Of a stretch of DNA of 64,000 nt, positions 7,388 through 43,042 are shown one piece after another (positions within the stretch are counted from its first letter, which is position 1; every line of letters begins with the position of its first letter). Made by a program: the position numbers and the translations under genes. The notes below the pieces were generated by a model that did no database searches, was not told where the DNA came from, and saw nothing but the letters and a program-made list of their open reading frames with translations. This DNA is from an uncultured Verrucomicrobiae bacterium (GTDB lineage Bacteria; Verrucomicrobiota; Verrucomicrobiia; Chthoniobacterales; UBA10450), in the NCBI GenBank assembly GCA_963756875.1, contig CAVWPA010000001.1, positions 640,001 to 704,000 on the forward strand, in the 5' to 3' direction.

Positions 7388-8368
7388 ATGCGTCTTGCCA
7401 CCATTCTTCCAGAGAACGGAACGGGGCCGGTCCCGGCGGTCTCCGTGGACGCTCATAATTGGGTGCCGCTCCATCCCTTCCTTCGTTTTTTTGGCGTAAA
7501 AGGGTTGCCGGAAGACCCGCTTGAGCCCCTGGAACTGTTTCTTCCGATCCTGATCCCGCGGTTCGCGGAGTTCACGCGGAAGGTGAACGACTGGCCGGAG
7601 CACGGCCGTGTTTTTCAAAAAAAGGGCGGCAAAACGGTGCGCGCGCGGAGATTTCTCCCACCGATCAACAAGCCGCCTACTTTTCGCGATTTCTACGGGT
7701 TCGAACAGCACGTGCGAAACACGCGGGCCCGGCGCGGACTCGACATGATTCAGACGTGGTATGAAATCCCTGTCTTTTATTTCTCCAACGCAAACTCGCT
7801 TGTAGGAAACGACGCTGGGATTTTTGCGCCGGCCGGGTCGAACGAGTTGGATTACGAGTTGGAACTTGGTCTTGTGATCGGCAAACCCGGACGCGACATT
7901 CCCGTGGAGCAGGCGTGGGATTATGTGGCGGGGCTTACCGTTATCAACGGCTTCAGCGCCCGCGATCTGCAGCGCGCGGAGATGGAGGTCGGCCTTGGAC
8001 CGGCAAAAGGAAAAGATTTTGCCACTGCGGTTGGGCCGGTGCTGGTAACGCGCGATGAATTTTCCGACAAGATCGACCGGGAGAGAATCTCCCTCGATAT
8101 GCGGGCGCGCGTAAACGGCCGCGAGCTTTCTCTCGGAAACAGTTCGACGTTGTTTCATTCTCTTCCAAGGATGATCGCGCACGCCTCGCGTGACGCAGAT
8201 CTGTTCCCGGGTGCGGTAATCGGCAGCGGCGCGATTGGCGCCGGTTGCATCTGGGAACTCGGTCCGGAAAATACCGGCGGCTGGTTGAAACCCGGCGACG
8301 TCGTCGAGCTTGAAGTCGAGCGGATTGGAACTCTGCGAACGACCATCACGTCGCGGCCGTCTGCGTGA
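7388..8368 (+). CDS. Fumarylacetoacetate hydrolase family protein
   Basis: RDFYGFEQH, PVFYFSN, LDYELELG, SARDLQ, KGKDFAT, GDVVELEVERIG. Confidence 0.9.
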   Translation: MRLATILPENGTGPVPAVSVDAHNWVPLHPFLRFFGVKGLPEDPLEPLELFLPILIPRFAEFTRKVNDWPEHGRVFQKKGGKTVRARRFLPPINKPPTFRDFYGFEQHVRNTRARRGLDMIQTWYEIPVFYFSNANSLVGNDAGIFAPAGSNELDYELELGLVIGKPGRDIPVEQAWDYVAGLTVINGFSARDLQRAEMEVGLGPAKGKDFATAVGPVLVTRDEFSDKIDRERISLDMRARVNGRELSLGNSSTLFHSLPRMIAHASRDADLFPGAVIGSGAIGAGCIWELGPENTGGWLKPGDVVELEVERIGTLRTTITSRPSA

Positions 8369-8389
8369 TTTCGCGCGGGCCGTGTACGC

Positions 8390-8482
8390 AAAAGGCCGCA
8401 CAGCGAAAGCAATTCGCGGTGCGGCCTTTTGTTCTGCGAATTAAGGAAACCGCATTGCGGGGTCGAACCACAATGCGGCCTC
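8390..8482. terminator. Two adjacent hairpins; probable bidirectional intrinsic terminator between the FAH gene and peptide gene 1
   Basis: AAAAGGCCGCAC...GTGCGGCCTTTT (8390-8430) and ACCGCATTG...CAATGCGG (8446-8482). Confidence 0.75.
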
Positions 8483-8495
8483 GTCGTTAGTCAGG

Positions 8496-8708
8496 TTAGT
8501 TCTTCGAAGCGCCACCGCCGAGGCTGGATGAGCCGCCGCCGAGACTGGAGGAACCGCCACCGAGGCTGGAGGAACCGCCGCCGAGGCTCGAGGAGCCACC
8601 GCCGAGGCTGGATGAGCCGCCGCCGAGATAATGTCCGCCGCCGCCTTTGGCATCCTTGGATGGTTTGAGGTCACGAACTTTGATGTTTTTCTTAGTCTTT
8701 TTAGCCAT
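8496..8708 (-). CDS. Secreted precursor peptide 1 (70 aa): basic double-glycine leader + GGHY(LGGGSSS)5LGGGASKN core
   Basis: ATG at 8708 after an A-rich spacer; MAKKTKKNIKVRDLKPSKDAKGG|GGHY...; 21-nt repeat with synonymous variation; paralog at 9419-9601; downstream of a C39 exporter. Confidence 0.85.
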   Translation of the reverse strand: MAKKTKKNIKVRDLKPSKDAKGGGGHYLGGGSSSLGGGSSSLGGGSSSLGGGSSSLGGGSSSLGGGASKN

Positions 8709-8725
8709 GTTGTTTTCTTCTTTCT

Positions 8726-8914
8726 TTATTTGTTTGGGTTTGTTGTTTGTGTTGGTTGAGTGGCACCGAGCAACAATTGAACGCCCGCCAACGATATTCT
8801 GTTTTGGAATCAGGTCGCCGGGCGGACCAATCTTTCCTTTCTGCGCTTTGGCCGCTGGCCGACTGCCTCTCCGGCGGGCGCATTTGTTTTGTTTTTGTTT
8901 TTCGGTGTGTTCAC
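8726..8914 (-). pseudogene. Probable third leader-bearing peptide, broken by two compensating 1-nt indels (or read errors)
   Basis: GTG 8914 MNTPKNKNKTNAPAGEAVGQRPKRRKERLVR / GDLIPKQNIVGG / RQLLLGATQPTQTTNPNK* (TAA 8726-8728); total length 189 nt is a multiple of 3; DL-x5-I-x-GG matches the other two leaders. Confidence 0.5.
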
Positions 8915-8928
8915 TTTCGACCGCCCTA

Positions 8929-8947
8929 TTACCACCATTCGTGCCAG
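8929..8947 (-). promoter_or_regulatory. Sigma-54-like -24/-12 box for peptide unit 1
   Basis: Minus strand CTGGCACGAATGGTGGTAA (GG-N10-GG instead of GC); near-identical to 9662-9680. Confidence 0.65.
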
Positions 8948-8988
8948 CTCTTTGCGGGTCCGAAAAGTTCACTGCGTTTCTTCTTCTA

Positions 8989-9001
8989 AATCAGGTAGTT
9001 A
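8989..9001 (+). promoter_or_regulatory. IHF-like binding site, unit 1
   Basis: AATCAGGTAGTTA fits WATCAR-N4-TTR; lies between -24 box and enhancer dyads. Confidence 0.55.
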
Positions 9002-9046
9002 CAAAACGAAGATTTCACAATTGCGTAAAATCAACGTCGCCACGAC

Positions 9047-9085
9047 GGTCTAATTATGAGGCCGGGCTGGTCTATTATTGAGGCC
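9047..9085. promoter_or_regulatory. Tandem dyad enhancer (UAS) candidate, unit 1
   Basis: GGTCTAATTATGAGGCC (9047-9063) and GGTCTATTATTGAGGCC (9069-9085), 22-bp period. Confidence 0.6.
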
Positions 9086-9119
9086 CCGCCCGGCGCAGAT
9101 GTGGCGCGTTTTTTGTAAA

Positions 9120-9275
9120 CGTGTTTCCTTGGCTCCTGGGCATGATCGCACCCCTTCCGCGACGCGGATCTCCTTGTCACGATTGGCCGCGGCGCCGTTG
9201 GCCGGCGACGTCGTCGAGCTGGAGATCGAGCGGATCACGCTGCAGACGAAGATCACGTCGCGTCCCTCTTTGTAA
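9120..9275 (+). pseudogene. Decayed duplicate of the 3' end of the FAH-family gene
   Basis: GDVVELEIERITLQTKITSRPSL* versus GDVVELEVERIGTLRTTITSRPSA* of 7388-8368; upstream ATGATCGC...GACGCGGATCT also aligns. Confidence 0.8.
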
Positions 9276-9322
9276 CGTTCCCCTGGGGCGGGTGTATGTA
9301 CACGTAGATCACAATGTACATA

Positions 9323-9412
9323 AAGAGCCGCACAGCGGATATATCGCGGTGCGGCTCTCTGTTCTGCAAATGATGGAAACCGCACTGCGGGATGGAACCG
9401 CAGTACGGTCTC
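9323..9412. terminator. Duplicated double-hairpin terminator downstream of peptide gene 2
   Basis: AGAGCCGCAC...GTGCGGCTCT and ACCGCACTGCGG...CCGCAGTACGGT, homologous to 8390-8482. Confidence 0.7.
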
Positions 9413-9418
9413 GTTTCG

Positions 9419-9601
9419 TCAATTACGTGATGCGCCGCCGCCGAGGCTCGATGCGCCACCGCCCAGGCTCGATGCGCCGCCGCCCAGGTTCTTGGAGCCA
9501 CCACCGAGGTGGTGAACTCCGTGGCCGTGCTGGCCGCCACCTGTGACATCTTTCTTCACTTTAAGGTCACGGACTTTGTTTTGCTTCTTTCCTTTTTTCA
9601 T
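9419..9601 (-). CDS. Secreted precursor peptide 2 (60 aa): basic double-glycine leader + GQHGHGVHH-LGGGSKN-(LGGGASS)2-LGGGASRN core
   Basis: MKKGKKQNKVRDLKVKKDVTGG|; AAGGA RBS upstream; paralog of 8496-8708. Confidence 0.85.
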   Translation of the reverse strand: MKKGKKQNKVRDLKVKKDVTGGGQHGHGVHHLGGGSKNLGGGASSLGGGASSLGGGASRN

Positions 9602-9661
9602 GGGGTTTGGGTCCTTTCTGTTTGGTTTGACTCTGCATCTGCATTTACTTCGGTTGTTCGG

Positions 9662-9680
9662 TTACCAGCATCCATGCCAG
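9662..9680 (-). promoter_or_regulatory. Sigma-54-like -24/-12 box for peptide unit 2
   Basis: Minus strand CTGGCATGGATGCTGGTAA (GG-N10-GG). Confidence 0.65.
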
Positions 9681-9721
9681 ATCTTCGTATGTGCGGAAGC
9701 GTTCCTTTGCTTCCTGTTCTC

Positions 9722-9734
9722 AATCAGATACTTG
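9722..9734 (+). promoter_or_regulatory. IHF-like binding site, unit 2
   Basis: AATCAGATACTTG fits WATCAR-N4-TTR; same offset from the -24 box as in unit 1. Confidence 0.55.
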
Positions 9735-9779
9735 CGAACCGAAGATTTCCAGGCCGTGTAGGAACGGAATCGTTAAGCC

Positions 9780-9818
9780 GGTCTAAGTTTTGGTCCACGC
9801 TGGTCGATTATTAGGACG
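9780..9818. promoter_or_regulatory. Tandem dyad enhancer (UAS) candidate, unit 2, overlapping the 3' end of the activator gene
   Basis: GGTCTAAGTTTTGGTCC (9780-9796) and GGTCGATTATTAGGACG (9802-9818), 22-bp period. Confidence 0.55.
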
Positions 9819-10832
9819 CTGGTGGCTCCGTAACTGAGCCGCATTTCGCAGGTGTCTCGCCAGTGTCGCCCGGGAAATGCCGAGCAGCTTCGCCGTGCGC
9901 CTCTGGTTGCGGTTCGTTTGTTCGTACACAAAGTGAACATGCCTTTTGACGGCGCTGGCCAGGGAGAGATCGACCTTGTTCTGATGCGCCAGGGGTGTGT
10001 TTTGAGGCACGTATGGGCTGTGGTTGCCATCTCCTGGCAATCGATCGGGTTCGAGATCGGGAGGGAAGACGACATGCTGTGGAAGAACGACCCGGCCGTC
10101 GCAGAAAAGTGCCATCGTTCGCACCGTGTGATTTAGTTCGCGAAGATTGCCGCGCCAGTCGTGATGAACGAGTTTCTCCATCGCCTCGGGATGAATCGCG
10201 CTGATCGTCTTGCCTTCTTTCGCCGCTGCAGTGGTTAGTTCTCCAGCGATCAAAGCGGGCAATTCTTCGAGACGTTCCCGTAACGGCGGAATGAGCAGCG
10301 TGAGTCCGTTGAGCCGCTGATAGAGGTCTTCGCGAAATTTTCCCTGCCGAACGCGCTCTCGCAAAGAGCAGTTTGATGCGCACAGAATTCGGGCGTTCGA
10401 TTTCAGCATTTGCTCGGAGCCAAGCCGCTCAAATTCGCCGTACTCAAGCACGCGCAGAATCTTAACCTGGGCAAGCGGGCTCATTTCCGAAATCTCATCG
10501 AGGAAAAGAGTCCCTCCGTCGGCAAGTTCAAATTTTCCTTTGACGCTCTGTTGCGCGCCGGTGAACGCCCCTTTCTCGTGCCCAAAAAGCTGGCTTTCGA
10601 GCAGCGTGTCGCTCATGGCCGACGCGTTGAAGGAAATAAACGGCCCGTGCGACCGCGCAGACGAATTATGGATGGCGTGCGCGAGGAGCGTTTTTCCGGT
10701 GCCGGTTTCGCCCAGAAGCACGACTGGCACCTCCGATATTGCGGCGAGTCTCGCCAGGCGCAGACAACGCGCCATTCCCGCGTTGTCGGTCGTGAGATCT
10801 TCGATTTTGAGTCGGTCCAGTGATTCTTGCAT
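9783..10832 (-). CDS. Sigma-54-dependent transcriptional activator (AAA+ and Fis HTH, no N-terminal sensor/receiver)
   Basis: GETGTGKT, ESQLFGHEKGAFTGA, LFLDEI, FREDLYQRL, WRGNLREL, NQRRTAKLLGISRATL. Confidence 0.93.
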   Translation of the reverse strand: MQESLDRLKIEDLTTDNAGMARCLRLARLAAISEVPVVLLGETGTGKTLLAHAIHNSSARSHGPFISFNASAMSDTLLESQLFGHEKGAFTGAQQSVKGKFELADGGTLFLDEISEMSPLAQVKILRVLEYGEFERLGSEQMLKSNARILCASNCSLRERVRQGKFREDLYQRLNGLTLLIPPLRERLEELPALIAGELTTAAAKEGKTISAIHPEAMEKLVHHDWRGNLRELNHTVRTMALFCDGRVVLPQHVVFPPDLEPDRLPGDGNHSPYVPQNTPLAHQNKVDLSLASAVKRHVHFVYEQTNRNQRRTAKLLGISRATLARHLRNAAQLRSHQRPNNRPAWTKT

Positions 10833-10845
10833 GAATGCTGCCGGT

Positions 10846-12033
10846 TTACCGCTTTATGTTTTCGCGCAACTGACGGATTGGCTCGAATGCGTACTCGACC
10901 ATCGTGCGGCTGCCGACGATGATGTGCGCTTCTCCCTTCATTCCAACGCGCAACTTGAGAGATTTGGCGGACCCTCCTGGGATATTCGTCCGATCGAGCG
11001 ATGCCAGGGCGATAAACCGGGAGCCATCGGGCGAAGTGACGGCCGAAGGGCTGATCCAATCCAGCCGGCCATCTACGGCGCCGTAACGCTGGTACGGAAA
11101 CGCATCGAAGAAATAGCGGACCTTTTGTGCAACCGCCAGTTTGGGCAGACCGGTTTCGTTTATGATCATGCGCGCACGCAACTTGGTGTTCTGCTGCGCC
11201 AATTGACATAGCACCTGGCCTTGTTGAACAACGCTCCCAACGGTCCGCTGATCCACCGAGATGACGGCGCCATCATAAGGGCTGCGCACCACGAGCAAAT
11301 TCTGCTGCGCATTTTCCAGGTCCGCCTTGAGAGCGGCTATGCGCACCTTCAGTTTTTCAATTTCGGCCTGGTGCTCGCTGCGCGTGTTCGCATGCTCTGT
11401 ATCCATCCGCTGGCGATCGAGGATGCTTTGCTGAAGCGTTCGCTGTGCGACGCTGAAATCTTTTTCCGCGCCGGCCGCCTCGAGCCGAAGCTTAATGAGA
11501 TCGACGTCCGACATGCCGCCTTCCAGCGCCAGCTTTTCCATTCGTGTGGCAAGATCGCGGCTCGTCTTGGCGTAGTTTTCCCGGAACTTTACTTCACTTT
11601 TCGCTTGTTCGATCTCTTCCAGCTTGATCTTCAGCTGCGCCGCGTAGGCGATTTCGCCTCGCTTCAGGCTTTGTTCTCTGGTGTGCAGATCTTCCGTCAA
11701 GGTCTGCATTTGTGTGTCCCAGCTGCGGATTTCGTCTGACCGCAAAGCAAACAGTTCCGCTCCCTTTTTGACAGTCTGGCCTTCGCGGACTGAGACACGC
11801 GTAATAATACCCTGATGCGGCGATTGAATCGGGTCGGCTCCGGTGGCCGGGACCAAAATGAATGGGCAACGGACTGTCTCTGGCAGGCGCATGACGATTG
11901 CCATCACAAGGGCTAATAGGAATGCCCCCAGCAGGCACCAGCCAGCGGAACGAATGATCCACGCAGGCGGTTCTTGTGGAAGCATTTCCGATTCGGTGTC
12001 GATGGACGCGCGCGATAGGGATGTCGTGCTCAT
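10846..12033 (-). CDS. HlyD-family membrane fusion protein
   Basis: N-terminal TM, IQSPHQGII..VREGQTVKKG, coiled coil, VRSPYDG, FDAFPYQRYG, LRVGM. Confidence 0.92.
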   Translation of the reverse strand: MSTTSLSRASIDTESEMLPQEPPAWIIRSAGWCLLGAFLLALVMAIVMRLPETVRCPFILVPATGADPIQSPHQGIITRVSVREGQTVKKGAELFALRSDEIRSWDTQMQTLTEDLHTREQSLKRGEIAYAAQLKIKLEEIEQAKSEVKFRENYAKTSRDLATRMEKLALEGGMSDVDLIKLRLEAAGAEKDFSVAQRTLQQSILDRQRMDTEHANTRSEHQAEIEKLKVRIAALKADLENAQQNLLVVRSPYDGAVISVDQRTVGSVVQQGQVLCQLAQQNTKLRARMIINETGLPKLAVAQKVRYFFDAFPYQRYGAVDGRLDWISPSAVTSPDGSRFIALASLDRTNIPGGSAKSLKLRVGMKGEAHIIVGSRTMVEYAFEPIRQLRENIKR

Positions 12034-12039
12034 TGTAAC

Positions 12040-15000
12040 TCAGATACCCAACTGTTGACTCGAGAGATAGTAATAGAGGCCCCGCTGTGCCATCAGTTCG
12101 TCGTGCGTTCCTACTTCGGCGACGCTTCCTTTTTCCAGGACGACGATCGCATGCGCTTCGCGGATCGTGCTGAGGCGATGCGCGATCACAATCGTGGTGC
12201 GTCCCGCCATTAATCTTCCAAGATTGTCCTGAATGGCGCGCTCCGATTCCGTGTCCAGGGCGCTCGTTGCTTCGTCAAAAATCAAAACGGGGGGATTATT
12301 GTAAATCGCACGGGCAATCGCGATTCGCTGTTTTTGTCCGCCGGAAAGGGAAAGGCCCGATTCGCCAATTTTCGTTTCGTAACCAAGCGGCAGCCGCATG
12401 ACAAAATCATGTGCCGCAGCGGCCTGGGCTGCGCTCAGGACACGATCGAGATCCGGCTCCGGATCGCCGAATGCGATGTTGCGCGCGATCGTTTCATTAA
12501 ACATGTGGTTTTCCTGCAGGACCATTCCGATATGCCGGCGCACATCGCGATAGTTGAGAGTTTTTAAATCGACGTTGTCGAAGAAGATGGTTCCCTCGGT
12601 CGGCTCGAGCAGTCCGGCAATCAGCTTGATCAGCGTTGTTTTCCCGCAACCGCTCCGACCCACGAACGCCACCATTCTGCCCGGCGCGAGATCGAGGTTT
12701 ACATTCGTCAGAATGTTCGGCGCTTCCGGGCCGCCGTATTTGAAACAAACACCGCGCAATTCGATCCGGCCTTCCAGACTATGCACCGGCGCGAGCTGGG
12801 AGCGGTCGTGCCCTTGCTCCGGCTCCTGCTCGAAAATGTCGTTCAATCGATTGAGCAGCACGGAGGCCAGTTGCAGGCTGTCCCAAACGCCGAGCGTGCG
12901 CAGGATGCCGGAGTAGGCCATTGCCGTCAGCGAGCTAAACGCGACGAACCCGCCGACGCTCAAATGTCCGTGAATGACTTGCGTGGCGCCCACCCAGAGA
13001 AAGATCGCCGTGGAAAGCAAACCAATGCTCTGCAGCACGCTGTCGTAAGACATGACAATAAAGCCCGCTCTGAACATCTGCTTCGAGACCGACAGGAACT
13101 CGTTCAGCATCGCGTCGCGAAACGCGCTTTCGGCCGATGCAGCTTTGACCGCCTCGATCCCTTTAATGGCGTCGATTTGATGCGAACTGTATTTGCCCTG
13201 GCTTTCTTCCACGCCCGCAAACAACGGGCGTAGCACTTTGACGGAGAAAATCATCAGCCCCACGTACAGTGGCGTGGTTGCCAGAAACGCGAGCATCAGC
13301 AGCGGGCTGTAGAGGCCCATCAGGCAAAGCGCGCCGGACAGATAAATGAGAGCCAATAGTGCGCCGATCCCTTGTTGTACCGCGAACTGTCGGACCTGGC
13401 GTGCGCCGTCGAGTCGCCGCTGAATATCGCCTGTGCGCCGGCTTGTAAAATAAGTCATGGGCAGCGAAAGAAGTTTGCGGCTCAGAAAATCAAGCACCGC
13501 CGTATCCAGCCGCACCGCCGCAAAGGCGAGGAGGTACTCCTGCGCGAGCGTGCACAGTTGCACGAATACGATCGCGGCGAGCATTCCGAGCAGGATGATG
13601 TGGAGCAGTCCGATGTCGTTTTCCACGATTACTTTGTCGACGACTATTTGCGTGAAAACGGGGAAAAGAAGTTGCAAAAGGCTAACGGCCACGGCCAGTC
13701 CGAGCACTTGCAACAGGATTACCTTGAATCGCGCGAGGAACGGGAGGATCCACGCCAGCGCCGGCTTGCTCTCCGGCGCAGTTTCAAATGCAGTCGTGTA
13801 GTCAAATAACGCGGTGTATCCGGTCCACTTTGCTTCAAATTCGCGCCGAGGAACTTTGCGCAACCCAAGCGCCGGGTCCGCTACGCGCACGAATTCCGCA
13901 TCGACATCGTAGAGGACGATCCAATGGTTACCTTCCCAGTGAACGATCGCCGGCAACGGCATTGTCGACAGATTGCGCAGTGACACCTTCAGCGCGCGAG
14001 CCGCCAGCCCCAGCTCCGATGCAGCCCGCACGAGCGCCTTCAAACTGGTGCCGTCGGTCGCCGTGTGGCAAAGCTGCCGAATGCGAGCCAGGCTCACTTT
14101 TCTTCCGAAATGACGGCAGATCATGCCCAGGCTCGCCGCGCCGCAATCCATTTCGTCGATTTGTTGAACGTGTTCGATCTTGCGGATGCGCTTCCCGCGT
14201 TTGCGGAAATAGCCCTGCTCGTCCGCGAACGGGTCTTCCCCGTCTTCGGCTTCACCCGGCGGCTGTTCGCCATCGAGCTCGGTTTTGTCAGCCCGTCGCG
14301 TCTCGGCCGGAAGCAATTCCTCCGTAAAATCGAGCGGAATTCGCGCTTCCGTTCTCGCCTGATAAATTGCCAGCCGCTCGCCAAGCAGTTTGTCGAATTC
14401 CGGGAAACGGCCTCGCAATTCCAGAACGGAATTCGGATCGAGCGCGAGCAGTTTGCAGTCCGTAAACGCTTCTACCGACGCTCCTCGCGGCGCGCCGATC
14501 AAGATCGATAATTCGCCAAAAAAATCGCCCTCGCGATAAAAAGCGAGGTTGGTTTCGTGCCCGCTCCCATTGGTAAACGCGCGCGCGCGCCCTTTCTCGA
14601 TCACGTACATCGGGCCGGCAACATCGCCTTCCCGGATGATTAAATGGCCTTTGGAGACCCCGAGAGGCGTCAGCTTGTCGATCATACTGCGTAACGCCGG
14701 CCCTGGAAGCCGTCCGAAATTGCTGAATTGATACAGAAAGCTCTGGACGGCGCGGTTTCGCCCAATCATCTCGATGTAGTGCCGAAGATCGGGAACCTGT
14801 TGGACCAGCTGGAGAAAAGCCTCTCGGTCGATTCGCAAAACTTCCACTGCTGTGCTGCATCGTACCGTCGCTGAGCGCGTGCCGCCCTCCGCCAGCGCCG
14901 CTTCGCCGAAGCTGTCGCCAGGTTTTAGGATCCCGAGCGGAATTTCTTCTCCGTCGGATTTAATTTTAAGCGCGCGGGCGCGTCCGTGCGTCAGGATGTA

Positions 15001-15153
15001 AAACGAATCGGCCGGATCGTCCTGCCTGACAATGATGTCTCCGAAATCGTAGTGTTCTTCCTGCAAAAGCGGTTCCAGCGCGGCAAAATGCTCGTCGGAA
15101 AGAAATCGGAACGCTGAGGACCGCCTGATAATCTCGGTATCGCGCGCACTCAT
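12040..15153 (-). CDS. Peptidase C39-containing ABC transporter (PCAT) with two N-terminal cyclic-nucleotide-binding domains
   Basis: Two CNB motifs (FGEAAL...RSATV; FFGELSI...RGASV); C39 QQIDEMDCGAASL, HWEGNHWIV, VADPA; TMD; GRSGCGKT, LSGGQKQR, DEATSALD, AHRL. Confidence 0.95.
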   Translation of the reverse strand: MSARDTEIIRRSSAFRFLSDEHFAALEPLLQEEHYDFGDIIVRQDDPADSFYILTHGRARALKIKSDGEEIPLGILKPGDSFGEAALAEGGTRSATVRCSTAVEVLRIDREAFLQLVQQVPDLRHYIEMIGRNRAVQSFLYQFSNFGRLPGPALRSMIDKLTPLGVSKGHLIIREGDVAGPMYVIEKGRARAFTNGSGHETNLAFYREGDFFGELSILIGAPRGASVEAFTDCKLLALDPNSVLELRGRFPEFDKLLGERLAIYQARTEARIPLDFTEELLPAETRRADKTELDGEQPPGEAEDGEDPFADEQGYFRKRGKRIRKIEHVQQIDEMDCGAASLGMICRHFGRKVSLARIRQLCHTATDGTSLKALVRAASELGLAARALKVSLRNLSTMPLPAIVHWEGNHWIVLYDVDAEFVRVADPALGLRKVPRREFEAKWTGYTALFDYTTAFETAPESKPALAWILPFLARFKVILLQVLGLAVAVSLLQLLFPVFTQIVVDKVIVENDIGLLHIILLGMLAAIVFVQLCTLAQEYLLAFAAVRLDTAVLDFLSRKLLSLPMTYFTSRRTGDIQRRLDGARQVRQFAVQQGIGALLALIYLSGALCLMGLYSPLLMLAFLATTPLYVGLMIFSVKVLRPLFAGVEESQGKYSSHQIDAIKGIEAVKAASAESAFRDAMLNEFLSVSKQMFRAGFIVMSYDSVLQSIGLLSTAIFLWVGATQVIHGHLSVGGFVAFSSLTAMAYSGILRTLGVWDSLQLASVLLNRLNDIFEQEPEQGHDRSQLAPVHSLEGRIELRGVCFKYGGPEAPNILTNVNLDLAPGRMVAFVGRSGCGKTTLIKLIAGLLEPTEGTIFFDNVDLKTLNYRDVRRHIGMVLQENHMFNETIARNIAFGDPEPDLDRVLSAAQAAAAHDFVMRLPLGYETKIGESGLSLSGGQKQRIAIARAIYNNPPVLIFDEATSALDTESERAIQDNLGRLMAGRTTIVIAHRLSTIREAHAIVVLEKGSVAEVGTHDELMAQRGLYYYLSSQQLGI

Positions 15154-16244
15154 TCAGCGGAGTCTGCGGAAGGCAGACGCGGTTCGATGTATTTCCCCGT
15201 TAGCTCGGAAAAGTGTCGTTCAACCAGCCGTCGATCGATCCGTAGCTGCACCTCCGGATCGTCCGGTTGCGGTTCCACTTTCTTGACGATTCGATAAAGC
15301 TCAAAGCCGTCGCCTCGCGCGACCGGTTCCAGGATGTCGTCCACCGCGACGCTTAGAAATCTCTGCTGCAAATCGGGCGGCACATCCTGGCGCAGGAAAG
15401 AAACGTTGTTGTAAGGGTATCGACCCTCGGCGGCCACTTCCTCCATCGACATCCCGTCTTCGCGAATGCAAAACAAAGCTTCCTTGGCTGCATCGCGCGA
15501 TTCTACCTGAATGACCTCCGCCTCGAATCGCGTAAGCGGCATTCGCATCGTGGCCAGCTCTTTTTGTCGTGCCTGCGGCTCGAGCAACGTTTCTCTCCGG
15601 CGCCGGTACGCAGCTTCCATGGCCAGCGTTTCTTCAAACCACTGCGCGTCACGCCCGAGCCGACTCAACCAATCGGAGAGCTCTGCCTCTGTGATCTTGG
15701 TTCGATCGAGAAATCGTTGCCGCTCGGCGGCGTTTGTCTCCGTATCGACACTTTCGTTCGCTTGTGCCGCCAGGGCCGCCAGATGCCACATCAACTCTGT
15801 CGTCAAAAGATCCAGCTGACCCGACAAAATTAATTCGGCGATGAAAAGTTCGCGCAGTTCAGGCGGCGCTGAAAGGAGATCGATCGCGCCCGGCTCGATG
15901 GCTTCGTTTACGGCGTTGATCCAATACTGCCGCGCGAGATGATCGCCGAGATGGTCAAGATTCAAGCCGCGAACCGCCAGCCATTGTTCGGTTTCCTCCG
16001 CCGTGATCAGGTCGCGCTGGTAACGGAAAGCTTCCGCGTCGCTGTCGATCGCATCTTGATCCAACTCCAATTCAAGCGCGTCTGCCCTCTCCTCCGCTTT
16101 GATCCGACGCAGAAATTCGCTCCAGGTCGGCCCGATCTCGCCGCGAAAGACTGCGGCGTGGATCGCGTCGCGCGCTTTGTCACTCCTGGGGCCGCATGCG
16201 CAGACGACCAGGTCGTCAAGCGAGAGTGATTGGAGATCGCTCAC
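15150..16244 (-). CDS. PpiC/SurA-related (peptidylprolyl isomerase-like) peptide maturation/secretion protein
   Basis: AEAFRYQRDLITAEETEQWLAVRGL motif and C-terminal parvulin-like segment (SMEEVAAE...DVPPDLQQRFLS...ILEPV...GFELYRI); overlaps the transporter start (ATGA). Confidence 0.65.
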   Translation of the reverse strand: MSDLQSLSLDDLVVCACGPRSDKARDAIHAAVFRGEIGPTWSEFLRRIKAEERADALELELDQDAIDSDAEAFRYQRDLITAEETEQWLAVRGLNLDHLGDHLARQYWINAVNEAIEPGAIDLLSAPPELRELFIAELILSGQLDLLTTELMWHLAALAAQANESVDTETNAAERQRFLDRTKITEAELSDWLSRLGRDAQWFEETLAMEAAYRRRRETLLEPQARQKELATMRMPLTRFEAEVIQVESRDAAKEALFCIREDGMSMEEVAAEGRYPYNNVSFLRQDVPPDLQQRFLSVAVDDILEPVARGDGFELYRIVKKVEPQPDDPEVQLRIDRRLVERHFSELTGKYIEPRLPSADSAE

Positions 16245-16397: not shown

Positions 16398-17312
16398 ATG
16401 CCGCTGACCGCTTCCCTTCGCCACCTGCTCGCGCTCTCCATTGACTACGCCGGAATGTTTCCGCCGTGCAGTCTGGCCTTGACGCCGGCGCTGGAAAATC
16501 AGGCCATTTACGTGCGGTCAACCGATGCCTGGATGCTTTCCGGGTTCGTCCTGCCGGTGGCGCAGTTTCACGCCGCCGGCAACAGTCTTTCCCGCTTCGA
16601 TTCGGAGCATCCTTTAAAGATCTCCGCGCTGGGGCCCAAGGCCAGTGACGCAACTGATTTTATCAACGCTTTGAAGAGCACAATCGAGACGATTCATTCC
16701 TTCGAGGCGCAACACGGCGATTCTGTTTCGGTCGTTCAACTTGAAATGCCTTTGCCAGCGGAATTTGACGACGTTCTGCTACTCACGGACGCGAGGACGA
16801 TCGTCGGCGGCCTTACGGTTTTTTGGGAGGCCCCCGCAAATACGGCGGAACGCATCATCGCGTTGCTGGCCGAGCACCGATCCGGGAAGGCCCCCTTTGG
16901 TTATAAGCTGCGGACCGGCGGCGTGACCCCAGATGCATTCCCGGCGCCGGCGTCGGTTGCGCGAGCTCTGATGGCCTCTGCGAAACATGAGGTGCCGATC
17001 AAGTTCACCGCCGGTCTGCATCATCCGCTGCGACAATTTCGACATGAAGTGAACACGAAGATGTACGGATTTCTTAATGTACTCGGTGCGGCCGTGCTGG
17101 CAGCCGAGCATCGTTGGAACGAGCAACAGACCCTGGCGATGCTTGAAGACGAGAACGCCGCCTCGTTTGCCTTCGACGACAATTTCTTTGCCTGGCGTGA
17201 ATGGAAGATCGAGAATCGGCAGATCGAAGCGCGCCGGAAATTCGTGAGTTCGTTCGGCAGTTGTAGTTTCGACGAACCGCGCGAAGATTTGCGCGCCTTG
17301 AATTTATTGTAG
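16398..17312 (+). CDS. Conserved hypothetical protein upstream of fumarylacetoacetase
   Basis: IDYAGMFPP, KLRTGG, KFTAGLHHP, GFLNVL, SFGSCSFDEP motifs; 304 aa. Confidence 0.75.
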   Translation: MPLTASLRHLLALSIDYAGMFPPCSLALTPALENQAIYVRSTDAWMLSGFVLPVAQFHAAGNSLSRFDSEHPLKISALGPKASDATDFINALKSTIETIHSFEAQHGDSVSVVQLEMPLPAEFDDVLLLTDARTIVGGLTVFWEAPANTAERIIALLAEHRSGKAPFGYKLRTGGVTPDAFPAPASVARALMASAKHEVPIKFTAGLHHPLRQFRHEVNTKMYGFLNVLGAAVLAAEHRWNEQQTLAMLEDENAASFAFDDNFFAWREWKIENRQIEARRKFVSSFGSCSFDEPREDLRALNLL

Positions 17313-42435: not shown

Positions 42436-42622
42436 CGGCAGGGAGCACGGAGCAGGGAGCAGGGAGCAGGGAGCTGGGAGCTGGGAGCTGGGAGCTGGGA
42501 GCTGGGAGCTGGGAGCTGGGAGCTGGGAGCTGGGAGCTGGGAGCTGGGAGCTGGGAGCTGGGAACTGGGAACTGGGAGCTGGGAACTGGGAGCAGGGAAC
42601 TGGGAGCTGGGAGCTGGGAACT
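42436..42622. repeat. Long (GGGAGCT/GGGAACT/GGGAGCA)n heptamer array
   Basis: More than 20 consecutive 7-nt units. Confidence 0.9.
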
Positions 42623-43042
42623 GCCAAGCAGAAAACGCCCAACTCCGAAAGCTTTGATTCGTTTGCTGCCCGCTCTCTCACCCTCGCCCCTCGGGTTGTA
42701 TGATCTATGTCGCGGTGTCCCCACTCGCTCCATTCGCGAGCAGGCGCTCAACGCCGAACGCCGAAGACCGAAACGGATTTTTCACAAAAGTAAACGAAGC
42801 AAACGAAGGTCGGAGATCGGACGTCGGAGGTCAGCTTTCGGCGGTCGGATCGAAGTTCGTTGCGGCGAGGGCGCCGCAACCAACACCCGAGGCGGGTGTG
42901 CTCCCCGGAAGCGGAGATCAGAAGGTCCTATCCAGCCGCGAGCATCAAGCATCAAGCGCCTCTCCGAGCCCCTTAGCCCTTACCGCTTTGCCAGCGTTGT
43001 TACCGCTGGAATCGCAGGCGACACGCCTGCCTCTACAGGGTT

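Follow-up and report, generated by a model that had tools for sequence, protein, structure and literature searches.

Can a short, basic peptide segment that ends in Gly-Gly serve as an export tag although it lacks the hydrophobic residues at -7 and -12 by which such leaders are known? The question is raised by a 64,000-nt stretch of DNA (hereafter the window; positions 640,001 to 704,000 of contig CAVWPA010000001.1) from an uncultured Verrucomicrobiae bacterium, in which two intact small open reading frames (ORFs) and a broken one sit 180-1300 nt downstream of genes for a PpiC-like protein, a peptidase-containing ABC transporter (PCAT), an HlyD-family protein and a bacterial enhancer-binding protein (bEBP), all on the minus strand. 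We think it likely that the small ORFs encode precursors that are cleaved after Gly-Gly and exported by the adjacent PCAT and HlyD-family protein, and that their leader is a lineage-specific, non-canonical export tag. The narrower claim, that the small peptides are substrates of the PCAT, we regard as highly probable.

Both intact genes, read here in translation, encode precursors of the kind that we call type-2. The product of pepA (8496-8708, minus strand) has 70 aa, and its leader, residues 1-23 (8640-8708, minus strand; MAKKTKKNIKVRDLKPSKDAKGG), ends in ...KVRDLKPSKDAKGG; the 60-aa product of pepB (9419-9601, minus strand) begins with a leader of residues 1-22 (9536-9601, minus strand; MKKGKKQNKVRDLKVKKDVTGG), which ends in ...KVRDLKVKKDVTGG and, as a variant, has Val at both -8 and -4. 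The first-pass annotation, made from the sequence alone, had described a Leu at -10 and a hydrophobe at -4, and this is what the intact ORFs carry (Leu at -10 in both, Ala at -4 in pepA and Val in pepB). A third leader string, GDLIPKQNIVGG, stands in frame upstream of pepA within an artefactual 158-aa ORF, where it reads ...GPPGDLIPKQNIVGG (about 8783-8824, minus strand). Translated in all six frames, the 2,686,387-bp assembly shows 25 instances of the loose motif D-L-x5-[AVI]-x-G-G, three of which fall within this 1-kb stretch, whereas the other 22 give an expectation of about 0.008 per 1 kb; the third motif is therefore unlikely to be there by chance. All three window leaders are conserved in relatives. 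The 158-aa ORF itself (8496-8972) was rejected as a gene, as it crosses a promoter and fuses the shifted middle of another precursor gene (type-1, see below) to pepA. Neither pepA nor pepB matched a Pfam or NCBIfam family. In the ESM Atlas, pepB (score 0.86) and the type-1 product (0.93) fall in clusters of 'hypothetical proteins', some of them from Verrucomicrobiota, which we take as leads only.

Leaders of both types share the skeleton hydrophobic(-15)-x-hydrophobic(-13)-x-D(-11)-L(-10)-x-P(-8)-x-x-[DN](-5)-[AV](-4)-x-G-G. Residue frequencies were derived from 104 distinct type-2 and 42 distinct type-1 leaders; type-2 positions -11, -10, -8, -6, -5, -2 and -1 are partly fixed by the selection pattern, which required G at -2 and G, A or S at -1. 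Upstream from G at both -1 and -2, type-2 leaders have K at -3 (95%), A (94%) or V (4%) at -4, D at -5, K at -6, a mixture at -7 (K 47, S 19, A 12, R 8 and N 7%), P at -8 (98%), K at -9 (92%), L (86%) or M (12%) at -10, D at -11, R (76%) or Q (12%) but also G, K or H at -12, V at -13 (92%), K at -14 (95%), I (49%) or V (31%) at -15 and variable residues at -16. Their general form is M-(K-rich)-KVRDLKPxKDAKGG, Lys-rich upstream of -15, with a mean net charge of +6 (range +4 to +8). Canonical double-glycine leaders are usually acidic. Type-1 leaders likewise have G at -1 and -2; their -3 position is variable, followed upstream by V at -4 (98%), D (55%) or N (45%) at -5, K (79%) or E (17%) at -7, P at -8 (100%), I at -9 (98%), L at -10 and D at -11 (100% each), D (95%) or else N at -12, L at -13 (100%), R at -14 (88%), I at -15 (100%) and L, M or V at -16. 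Gly-Gly is present in pepA, pepB, the broken type-1 gene and the collected leaders, with rare DG or AG variants (loci L052 and L114).

Both leader types thus retain the canonical hydrophobe at -4, while the canonical hydrophobes at -7 and -12 are absent, mostly Lys being found at -7 and Arg or Asp at -12. ComA recognizes F(-15)-x2-I(-12)-x3-L(-7)-x2-I(-4) (PMC10885120). In the LahT complex, leader positions -4 to -11 are helical, and -4, -7 and -12 sit in a hydrophobic groove; charged residues at -4 or -7, and most changes at -12, abolish processing by LahT (PMC6363468). We compared 19 family peptides, comprising the two of the window, 10 metagenome homologues and 7 from related loci and including both leader types, with the leader and bacteriocin models of NCBIfam and Pfam. 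None of the 19 matched any such model at E<=10, and the only matches were sub-threshold chance ones to low-complexity cores. The earlier suggestion of a distinct leader family that is invisible to standard models is upheld in this respect. The idea of one family has to be modified: the non-canonical basic tag stands, but the leaders form two sub-families, the third example turned out to be a pseudogene of the second of them, and the range found is narrow.

The transporter next to these genes is, by contrast with the leaders, canonical in its peptidase. The PCAT (12040-15153, minus strand, 1037 aa) has, according to Pfam, two cNMP-binding domains (cNMP_binding 3.3e-46, in two stretches), a C39 peptidase (Peptidase_C39, PF03412, 5.3e-37), a transmembrane domain (ABC_membrane, 1.7e-41) and an ATPase (ABC_tran, 1.5e-36), so that a C39 domain with its catalytic residues, an ABC membrane domain and an ATPase lie in the same chain, as expected of a PCAT. 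Its C39 part, which is the only C39 domain in the assembly, aligns to ComA (3.2e-21), LahT (1.3e-20) and PCAT1, with E-values from 3e-21 to 8e-19, and includes the QxDxMDCG and H(W/Y) motifs; the catalytic residues Q331, C337, H410 and D426 are invariant in 8 orthologues. The HlyD-family membrane-fusion protein (10846-12033, minus strand, 395 aa) matches Pfam HlyD_3 at 1.2e-17 and TIGR01843 with 149 bits, which is below the cut-off of that model. The sigma-54 activator, i.e. the bEBP (9783-10832, minus strand, 349 aa), matches Pfam Sigma54_activat (PF00158) at 1.1e-61 and also HTH_8. It consists of an AAA+ domain, in the translation of which the GAFTGA motif can be read, and a C-terminal helix-turn-helix, with no N-terminal sensor domain.

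If the leader is a tag for this transporter, the two should be found together. A word-index protein search with pepB returned pepB itself and only one homologue of 52 aa. The profile built from pepA, pepB and this homologue matches pepA at E 3.5e-14; run against 1.84 billion representative proteins at E<=1e-3, it gave 67 matches, of which 61 are leader-bearing proteins of 34-89 aa, the others being five long low-complexity proteins and one 97-aa Gly-rich protein without the leader. The leader is at the N-terminus in most of the 61, a few being N-terminally over-extended and one having two tandem leader motifs, and those matches that were looked up either had no name or were called 'hypothetical protein'. 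The leader is therefore usable as a handle for mining, as had been proposed from the sequence alone. Within the window, a 7-nt microsatellite at 42438-42623, (GGGAGCT)x26 with 93% matches, gives spurious low-complexity matches to the peptide profile in three frames.

The peptide was matched in 18 of 41 related genomes, namely in 16 of 24 of the same family, in 1 of 16 from other families of the order, and in the genome of the window. When the phylum was sampled evenly, 3 of 401 genomes matched, namely the genome of the window and the two others of its family, whereas none of the remaining 398 Verrucomicrobiota did. The range found is one Chthoniobacterales family (Candidatus Udaeobacter-like) plus one genome of a neighbouring family. 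The module, represented by its accessory protein, is present in 17 of the 41 related genomes, 16 of which have both the peptide and the module; without the unpublished genomes G007 and G014, the counts are 16 for the peptide, 16 for the module and 15 for both, out of 39. The exceptions are G014 (68% complete, weak match), G022 (E 0.0024, with a stop codon inside) and G013 (module at the start of a small contig). Because related genomes are not independent, these counts describe a pattern and are not a test. A larger set was obtained by fetching 79 public loci with the accessory protein (from the best 80 of 235 relatives), nearly all of them labelled as Verrucomicrobiota, Chthoniobacterales or Candidatus Udaeobacter metagenome-assembled genomes. 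With the exclusion of 22 loci that stop short of the activator gene and of 13 in which fewer than 700 nt follow it, 44 were left for counting: 39 have a type-1 gene, 39 a type-2 gene, 35 both and 43 at least one, and these numbers are slightly low, as DG/AG variants and one type-2 gene were missed by the pattern. The 44th, seemingly empty, locus holds a type-1 gene ending in Ala-Gly, and one locus counted as type-2 only has a type-1 gene ending in Asp-Gly. The expectation that the motif accompanies C39 transporters thus agrees both with these 43 of 44 module loci and with the 16 genomes that carry both. Type-2 copies number none in 5 loci, one in 29, two in 7 and three in 3. In the loci listed, the type-1 gene comes first in the unit, about 300 nt after the activator gene, and the type-2 gene starts 2-10 nt past the type-1 stop.

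Two observations at the edges of this distribution may be added. In the neighbouring family, locus L027 (G029:C101, ~7400-8850) has six leader-bearing genes in a row, including two copies with the 8-aa core PISWPGRN behind the variant leader IKL[AS]DLEPKKDPKGG, which look more signal-like than the long repeat cores. Three module-bearing short contigs, L042, L072 and L078, were binned as Terriglobales, Terriglobia and Nitrospirota. Their identity to the query, 56-60%, is within the range of the Verrucomicrobiota loci, and mis-binning seems likelier than transfer.

The broken ORF deserves separate consideration, since it represents the second leader sub-family. DNA alignment to five relatives together with the type-1 family alignment places a frameshifted type-1 precursor gene at 8726-8914 (minus strand). 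Compared with the five relatives, the window copy has a 1-nt deletion at ~8820-8822 and a 1-nt insertion at 8780/8781. Between the two indels the frame is shifted, and the native type-1 frame runs into a TGA at 8812-8810; after the insertion, the type-1 core (V)QLLLGATQPTQTTNPNK is back in the original frame, with a stop at 8728-8726. The conserved GTG (8914-8912) and an internal TTG (8830-8828) are both present. At the position of the third leader string, relatives read ...LIRLDDLIPKQNVVGG. The third leader that the first-pass annotation had reconstructed, 'RLGDLIPKQNIVGG', is close to these relatives and the DNA behind it is real, but it belongs to a frameshifted type-1 copy and not to an intact gene. 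In relatives, the intact type-1 product reads (M)S/N-x-PKNKKNAPAGES...KRxKEK-[L/M/V]-IRLDDLIPKxxVxGG, followed by the conserved core RQLLFGATDxxQTxN... and a stop. The core is conserved across the family (consensus RQLLFGATD, with F and G invariant), and the codon-position entropy of the type-1 leader, 0.52/0.18/1.01, points to clear coding constraint.

As assembled, the window type-1 gene reads as a pseudogene. Positions 8590-8803, the insertion site included, recur unchanged in a 214-nt contig of a public soil run; at the least, then, this assembly is not alone in having the insertion, although the run may itself be the source sample of the window; the deletion site near 8820 lies outside the contig. 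The remaining pieces are short and come from relatives; they fall on the FAA-hydrolase-tail repeat, on the peptide repeats and on a portion of the pepA leader region. Among public sequencing runs, three DNA runs from a single soil study (best share 0.11) and no RNA run were listed as containing the stretch. Type-1 frameshifts are also found in L080 and L107, i.e. in at least three genomes when the window is counted, and in L107 the shift is at the Gly-Gly/core junction. The 1-nt insertion in the window lies a few bases past the same junction. These breaks could represent recurrent loss, slippage in a G-rich run or assembly error.

In contrast to the type-1 core, type-2 cores are wholly different between genomes behind leaders that are near-identical. 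The pepA core of 47 aa consists of GGHYL, five GGGSSSL units and GGGASKN with a C-terminal Asn, and is encoded by 21-nt tandem repeats. The pepB core is His/Gly-rich: GQHGHGVHHLGGGSKNL, which includes GQHGHGVHH, is followed by (GGGASSL)x2 and GGGASRN. Across 110 distinct type-2 cores, the length is 9-49 aa (median 31) and the composition is dominated by G (24%), S (10.9%), T (9.5%) and A (9.0%), with N, R, H, P and Q at ~6% each. Acidic residues are scarce (D 1.5% and E 0.3%, together 1.8%), the mean net charge is +2 and Cys occurs in a single core of the 110. Strong internal periodicity, with periods mostly of 5-8, was seen in 24 of the 110. Gly is the first residue in 60 of 110 and Asn the last in 30 of 110, compared with 6% Asn overall; the next commonest C-terminal residues are His (12), Gln (10) and Thr (10).

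The presence of two type-2 genes in the window has a local history. A segment of ~930 bp is duplicated (8292 to ~9016 and 9202 to ~9749) and comprises the 3' tail of an FAA-hydrolase gene, a terminator-like hairpin, the peptide gene and the promoter (repeat 8929-9016 pairs with 9662-9749). A dead copy of the final ~25 codons of the FAA-hydrolase gene (7388-8368) lies between pepB and pepA: the original tail is at 8292-8362 and its copy at 9202-9269 (plus strand; fragment ORF ...LAGDVVELEIERITLQTKITSRPSL). Judging by these repeats, the segmental duplication created the second peptide unit; the pepB unit has no type-1 gene. A like-for-like paralogue of pepB, KVRDLKVKKDVKGG, is the first gene after the activator in the relative L104, where the order of a pepB-like peptide, type-1 and two type-2 genes is the same as in the window. 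The hairpin, with 19-nt arms at 8389-8431 (no strand assigned), lies between the convergent FAA-hydrolase gene and pepA, has a duplicate at 9324-9358 and is likely a bidirectional terminator. An Rfam scan of 8200-10000 gave nothing meaningful, only two chance-level rows (E 0.2 and 0.75).

Each peptide unit is preceded by a candidate sigma-54-type -24/-12 promoter on the minus strand, at 8931-8946 (TGGCACGAATGGTGGT) upstream of the type-1/pepA unit and at 9664-9679 (TGGCATGGATGCTGGT) about 62 nt upstream of the pepB start. The pattern TGGCAY-N6-TGNT has only these two matches in the 64-kb window, one before each unit. The number of matches by itself says little, as ~0.5 are expected by chance and 13 of 100 shuffled sequences give two; the argument is carried by position and conservation: the element, with the consensus CTTGGCACGAATGnTGnTAATA, could be aligned in 38 related loci, ~35 nt before the conserved GTG. 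The -24 half, TGGCA(C/T), is conserved and the spacing fits sigma-54 promoters. A partly conserved element is found 100-150 nt upstream of the promoter, at the distance expected for an activator site, and the genome encodes rpoN (PF04552, 201 bits, at C3:85000-85476). No sigma-70-like site was seen in 8200-10000, and no TGGCAY-type promoter ahead of the accessory gene.

The remaining member of the module is the accessory protein (15150-16244, minus strand, 364 aa), which is SurA/PrsA-like (PpiC-like) and distantly TIGR04500-like. Against TIGR04500 (PpiC_rel_mature) it scores 39.4 bits (E 4.2e-10, two stretches), and 23.2 and 21.7 bits in a six-frame search of the genome. With 39.4 bits against a cut-off of 180, it is not a TIGR04500 member by the curated test. 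The AlphaFold model, computed from a 10-sequence alignment, has a mean pLDDT of 90.7. Its Foldseek matches are 3rgc_B (Cj1289) at 4.9e-6, PrsA at 5e-6 to 5e-5, SurA at 2e-4 and lone parvulin domains at ~0.05-0.08, whereas whole-chain TM-scores are low (0.20-0.38), so the domain arrangement may differ. The model thus indicates a SurA/PrsA/Cj1289-like chaperone fold. No N-terminal hydrophobic signal-like segment was apparent on inspection, and we therefore take the protein to be cytoplasmic. MirC, a TIGR04500 member, also has 3rgc as its best structural neighbour; in its cluster, where a PCAT is encoded as well, modification of the precursor requires MirC together with an ATP-grasp ligase, and the authors of that work propose that MirC acts as a chaperone or delivers the substrate (PMC13097080). 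The module is surrounded by housekeeping genes in the window (MurJ, a pyridoxal-phosphate enzyme, glutamate dehydrogenase, aldose epimerase and FAA hydrolases), and its flanks differ between relatives. Divergent from the accessory gene there is a 304-aa ORF (16398-17312, plus strand) with no Pfam or NCBIfam match, which is probably outside the module, because of the relatives examined just the closest two (L025 and L030) keep it at this place.

Taken together, these components suggest a sequence of events. The sensor-less activator, whose gene immediately follows those of the exporter and has the same orientation, would switch on the -24/-12 promoters of the peptide units; if activator and exporter are co-transcribed, as the gene order suggests, precursors would be made only when the pump is made. 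The cytoplasmic SurA/PrsA-like protein might then hold or present the Pro-containing leader, and a small nucleotide could control the pump through the two cNMP-type domains. Cleavage after Gly-Gly would be the work of the C39 domain, and the cationic core would leave the cell unmodified. It is tempting to go further and to imagine that the SurA/parvulin-like chaperone reads the D-L-x-P kink of the basic leader and passes the precursor to a PCAT whose two cNMP domains let it open in response to a second messenger, a rule unlike that of all studied PCATs, but we consider this elaboration distinctly unlikely. If it were true, the dominant, uncultured Verrucomicrobia of soils (Ca. Udaeobacter and kin) would possess a sigma-54- and nucleotide-gated secretion channel for fast-evolving repeat peptides together with one conserved, lineage-wide signal peptide. 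As for the products, our first choice, held tentatively and with less than even confidence, is that those of type-2 genes are secreted competition peptides, class II microcin-like, glycine-rich and cationic. The type-1 product is possibly a conserved co-exported signal or helper peptide, a suggestion about which we are more doubtful.

Several observations weigh against this picture. A leader with Lys at -7, Arg or Asp at -12 and Pro at -8 cannot bind C39 in the canonical way, so the groove must be different here or the leader must be recognized by some other protein. Some peptide loci are satellites away from the module (e.g. in G001, in G024 and, as an additional locus, in G008). The -12 half of the promoter is TG(A/G/T)T and departs from the textbook TTGC, which leaves sigma-54 dependence presumptive. 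The start of the type-1 gene is ambiguous: the in-frame GTG is kept in 44 of 46 copies, and an internal TTG, ATG or GTG is present in 44 of 46 as well, the codon before IRLDDL being TTG in 32, ATG in 6, GTG in 6 and CTA in 2 of the 46 and preceded by a purine-rich stretch. The stretch from GTG to IRLDDL varies most at third codon positions (entropy 0.60/0.71/1.05), and both a long form (leader of about 42 aa) and a short one (16-aa leader) may exist. Hydrophobic residues make up 13% of type-2 cores, unlike in most membrane-active class II bacteriocins. Inspection of the ORF tables of the window and of 18 related loci of 8-20 kb, with no dedicated search, revealed no conserved extra small ORF in or after the peptide units that might be an immunity gene, and the locus has no conserved outer-membrane factor either, both of which weaken a bacteriocin interpretation.

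How do other explanations fare? That the small ORFs are not substrates at all, but chance ORFs or cytoplasmic basic peptides that happen to lie beside a transporter, would agree with the lack of canonical hydrophobes at -7 and -12 and with the fact that the window's type-2 peptides match no family, yet it is hardly credible in view of the invariant Gly-Gly, the coding constraint on the type-1 leader, the presence of peptides at nearly every module locus (43 of 44), the coincidence of presence and absence across the 41 genomes and the restriction of the leader, among the profile matches, to the N-terminal end of proteins of 34-89 aa. If export is accepted, the products might be signals (quorum or kin-recognition pheromones) instead of antimicrobials, with the type-1 core as a shared signal and type-2 cores as strain-specific tags. 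A type-1 core conserved across the family is what one would expect of the ligand of a conserved receptor; the locus shows no conserved immunity gene, some relatives have very short duplicated cores (PISWPGRN, twice in L027), and PCATs export pheromones in other bacteria, HetC too having been proposed to export a signalling peptide (PMC10986499). However, the conserved module encodes no receptor kinase or other sensor, its activator has no sensor domain, an intact type-2 gene goes with a broken type-1 gene both in the window and in no fewer than two relatives (L080 and L107), and repeat-rich cores of 30-47 aa are unusual for pheromones. We regard signalling as an unlikely account of the products, but place it second after competition, above all for type-1.

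A non-signalling, non-killing role outside the cell, such as metal binding by cores with periodic His or a surface or matrix function, appears quite improbable. Regularly spaced His is seen in many cores (e.g. GHQMQGHQMQGHQNQ, TGHTGHIGHTGH, HGPTQHGPTQHG and GQHGHGVHH of pepB), the cores are hydrophilic and repeat-based, and microcins that self-assemble to promote biofilm have been reported (PMC13188072), but many other cores have no His (the GGGSSSL repeats of pepA, AGRTT repeats), which leaves no common chemistry. We give still less credence to the possibility that the peptides are precursors of RiPPs (peptides made by the ribosome and modified after translation); the SurA-like protein would then assist an unlinked modifying enzyme, in the way that MirC assists the graspetide synthetase, and export of the modified product would fall to the PCAT. 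The TIGR04500-like accessory protein, whose closest solved fold, Cj1289 (3rgc), is also that of MirC, required for ATP-grasp modification (PMC13097080), speaks for it, and Thr, Asp/Glu and Lys of the type-1 core could form ester or amide links. No modification enzyme is a conserved member or neighbour of the module, however, the flanks of which vary, and graspetide, lanthipeptide and thiazole chemistries are excluded for type-2 cores by the near absence of Asp/Glu and lack of Cys. A graspetide ligase elsewhere in the genome was considered and rejected: the only TIGR04187-like ATP-grasp match, ~215 kb away, stays below the cut-off of 350 with its 72.7 bits, and such sub-threshold matches occur in 9 of 14 control genomes as well. 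Competition peptides exported behind a non-canonical tag remain our preferred, though tentative, reading.

A leader family that curated models miss hides a whole set of secreted peptides from bacteriocin and RiPP mining, and the profile built here already recovers dozens of distinct cores. Ca. Udaeobacter-like bacteria are among the most abundant and least cultured soil bacteria, and a conserved, regulated peptide-secretion system in these Chthoniobacterales offers a lead on interactions with their neighbours. The combination of a canonical-looking C39 domain with a leader that breaks the -7/-12 rule is a probe of what determines PCAT specificity, and the system could yield a leader-removal protease of new specificity. 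Moreover, with likely substrates adjacent to a PCAT with cNMP domains, a class of which HetC is the studied example, nucleotide gating becomes directly testable.

When set against known systems, the locus is best described as a variant of PCAT/HlyD double-glycine peptide export with a non-canonical leader; no paper describing the leader or the module was found in the searchable literature, subscription papers and supplements lying outside it. With the canonical double-glycine peptides, such as class II bacteriocins, microcins and competence pheromones processed by ComA, LahT, PCAT1 or CvaB, it shares the short N-terminal leader, Gly-Gly and the small hydrophobe at -4, and like the ComA, LahT and PCAT1 systems it has a C39 domain that is canonical by sequence. 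Unlike canonical leaders, those found here have a net charge of ~+6, are matched by no curated leader model, and place hydrophobes at -10, -13 and -15 with none at -7 or -12 (PMC6363468, PMC10885120), while the Pro at -8 falls inside the span that is helical in the LahT complex (PMC6363468). The arrangement resembles Gram-negative microcin systems, in which precursors with conserved leaders and variable cores are encoded beside a C39-ABC exporter and an HlyD-type adaptor. Of the features of class II microcins, we found the small peptide with a double-glycine leader, the PCAT, the membrane-fusion protein and a conserved module with no modification enzyme; an immunity gene was not seen on inspection of the ORF tables. 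There is some likeness to NHLP/Nif11-type export as well: the best NCBIfam model of the transporter is TIGR03796 (541 bits, cut-off 853), and the HlyD partner is weakly TIGR03794-like (52.9 bits, cut-off 156). Unlike in those systems, the precursors have no long NHLP or Nif11 leader domain. In composition only, and with unrelated origin, the cores resemble the glycine-rich cationic antimicrobial peptides of plants and arthropods, which are similarly Gly-rich, Cys-free and built of tandem repeats with His or Arg. The rosaritide graspetide cluster likewise combines a SurA/Cj1289-like accessory protein (MirC, best neighbour 3rgc) with a PCAT and small precursors (PMC13097080); in contrast to it, the present locus has no ATP-grasp ligase and an accessory protein below the TIGR04500 cut-off. 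A further likeness, based on domain layout, is to HetC of Nostoc PCC 7120, in which a cNMP-type domain is also N-terminal to the C39 peptidase. HetC needs its cNMP domain and binds ppGpp in vitro (PMC10986499), and since a cNMP-type domain precedes C39 here too, export is probably gated by a small nucleotide, although the PCAT of the window has two such domains, unlike HetC. For HetC, the same source gives no known substrate and no double-glycine leader gene nearby (PMC10986499), whereas here the candidate substrates are encoded right next to the transporter.

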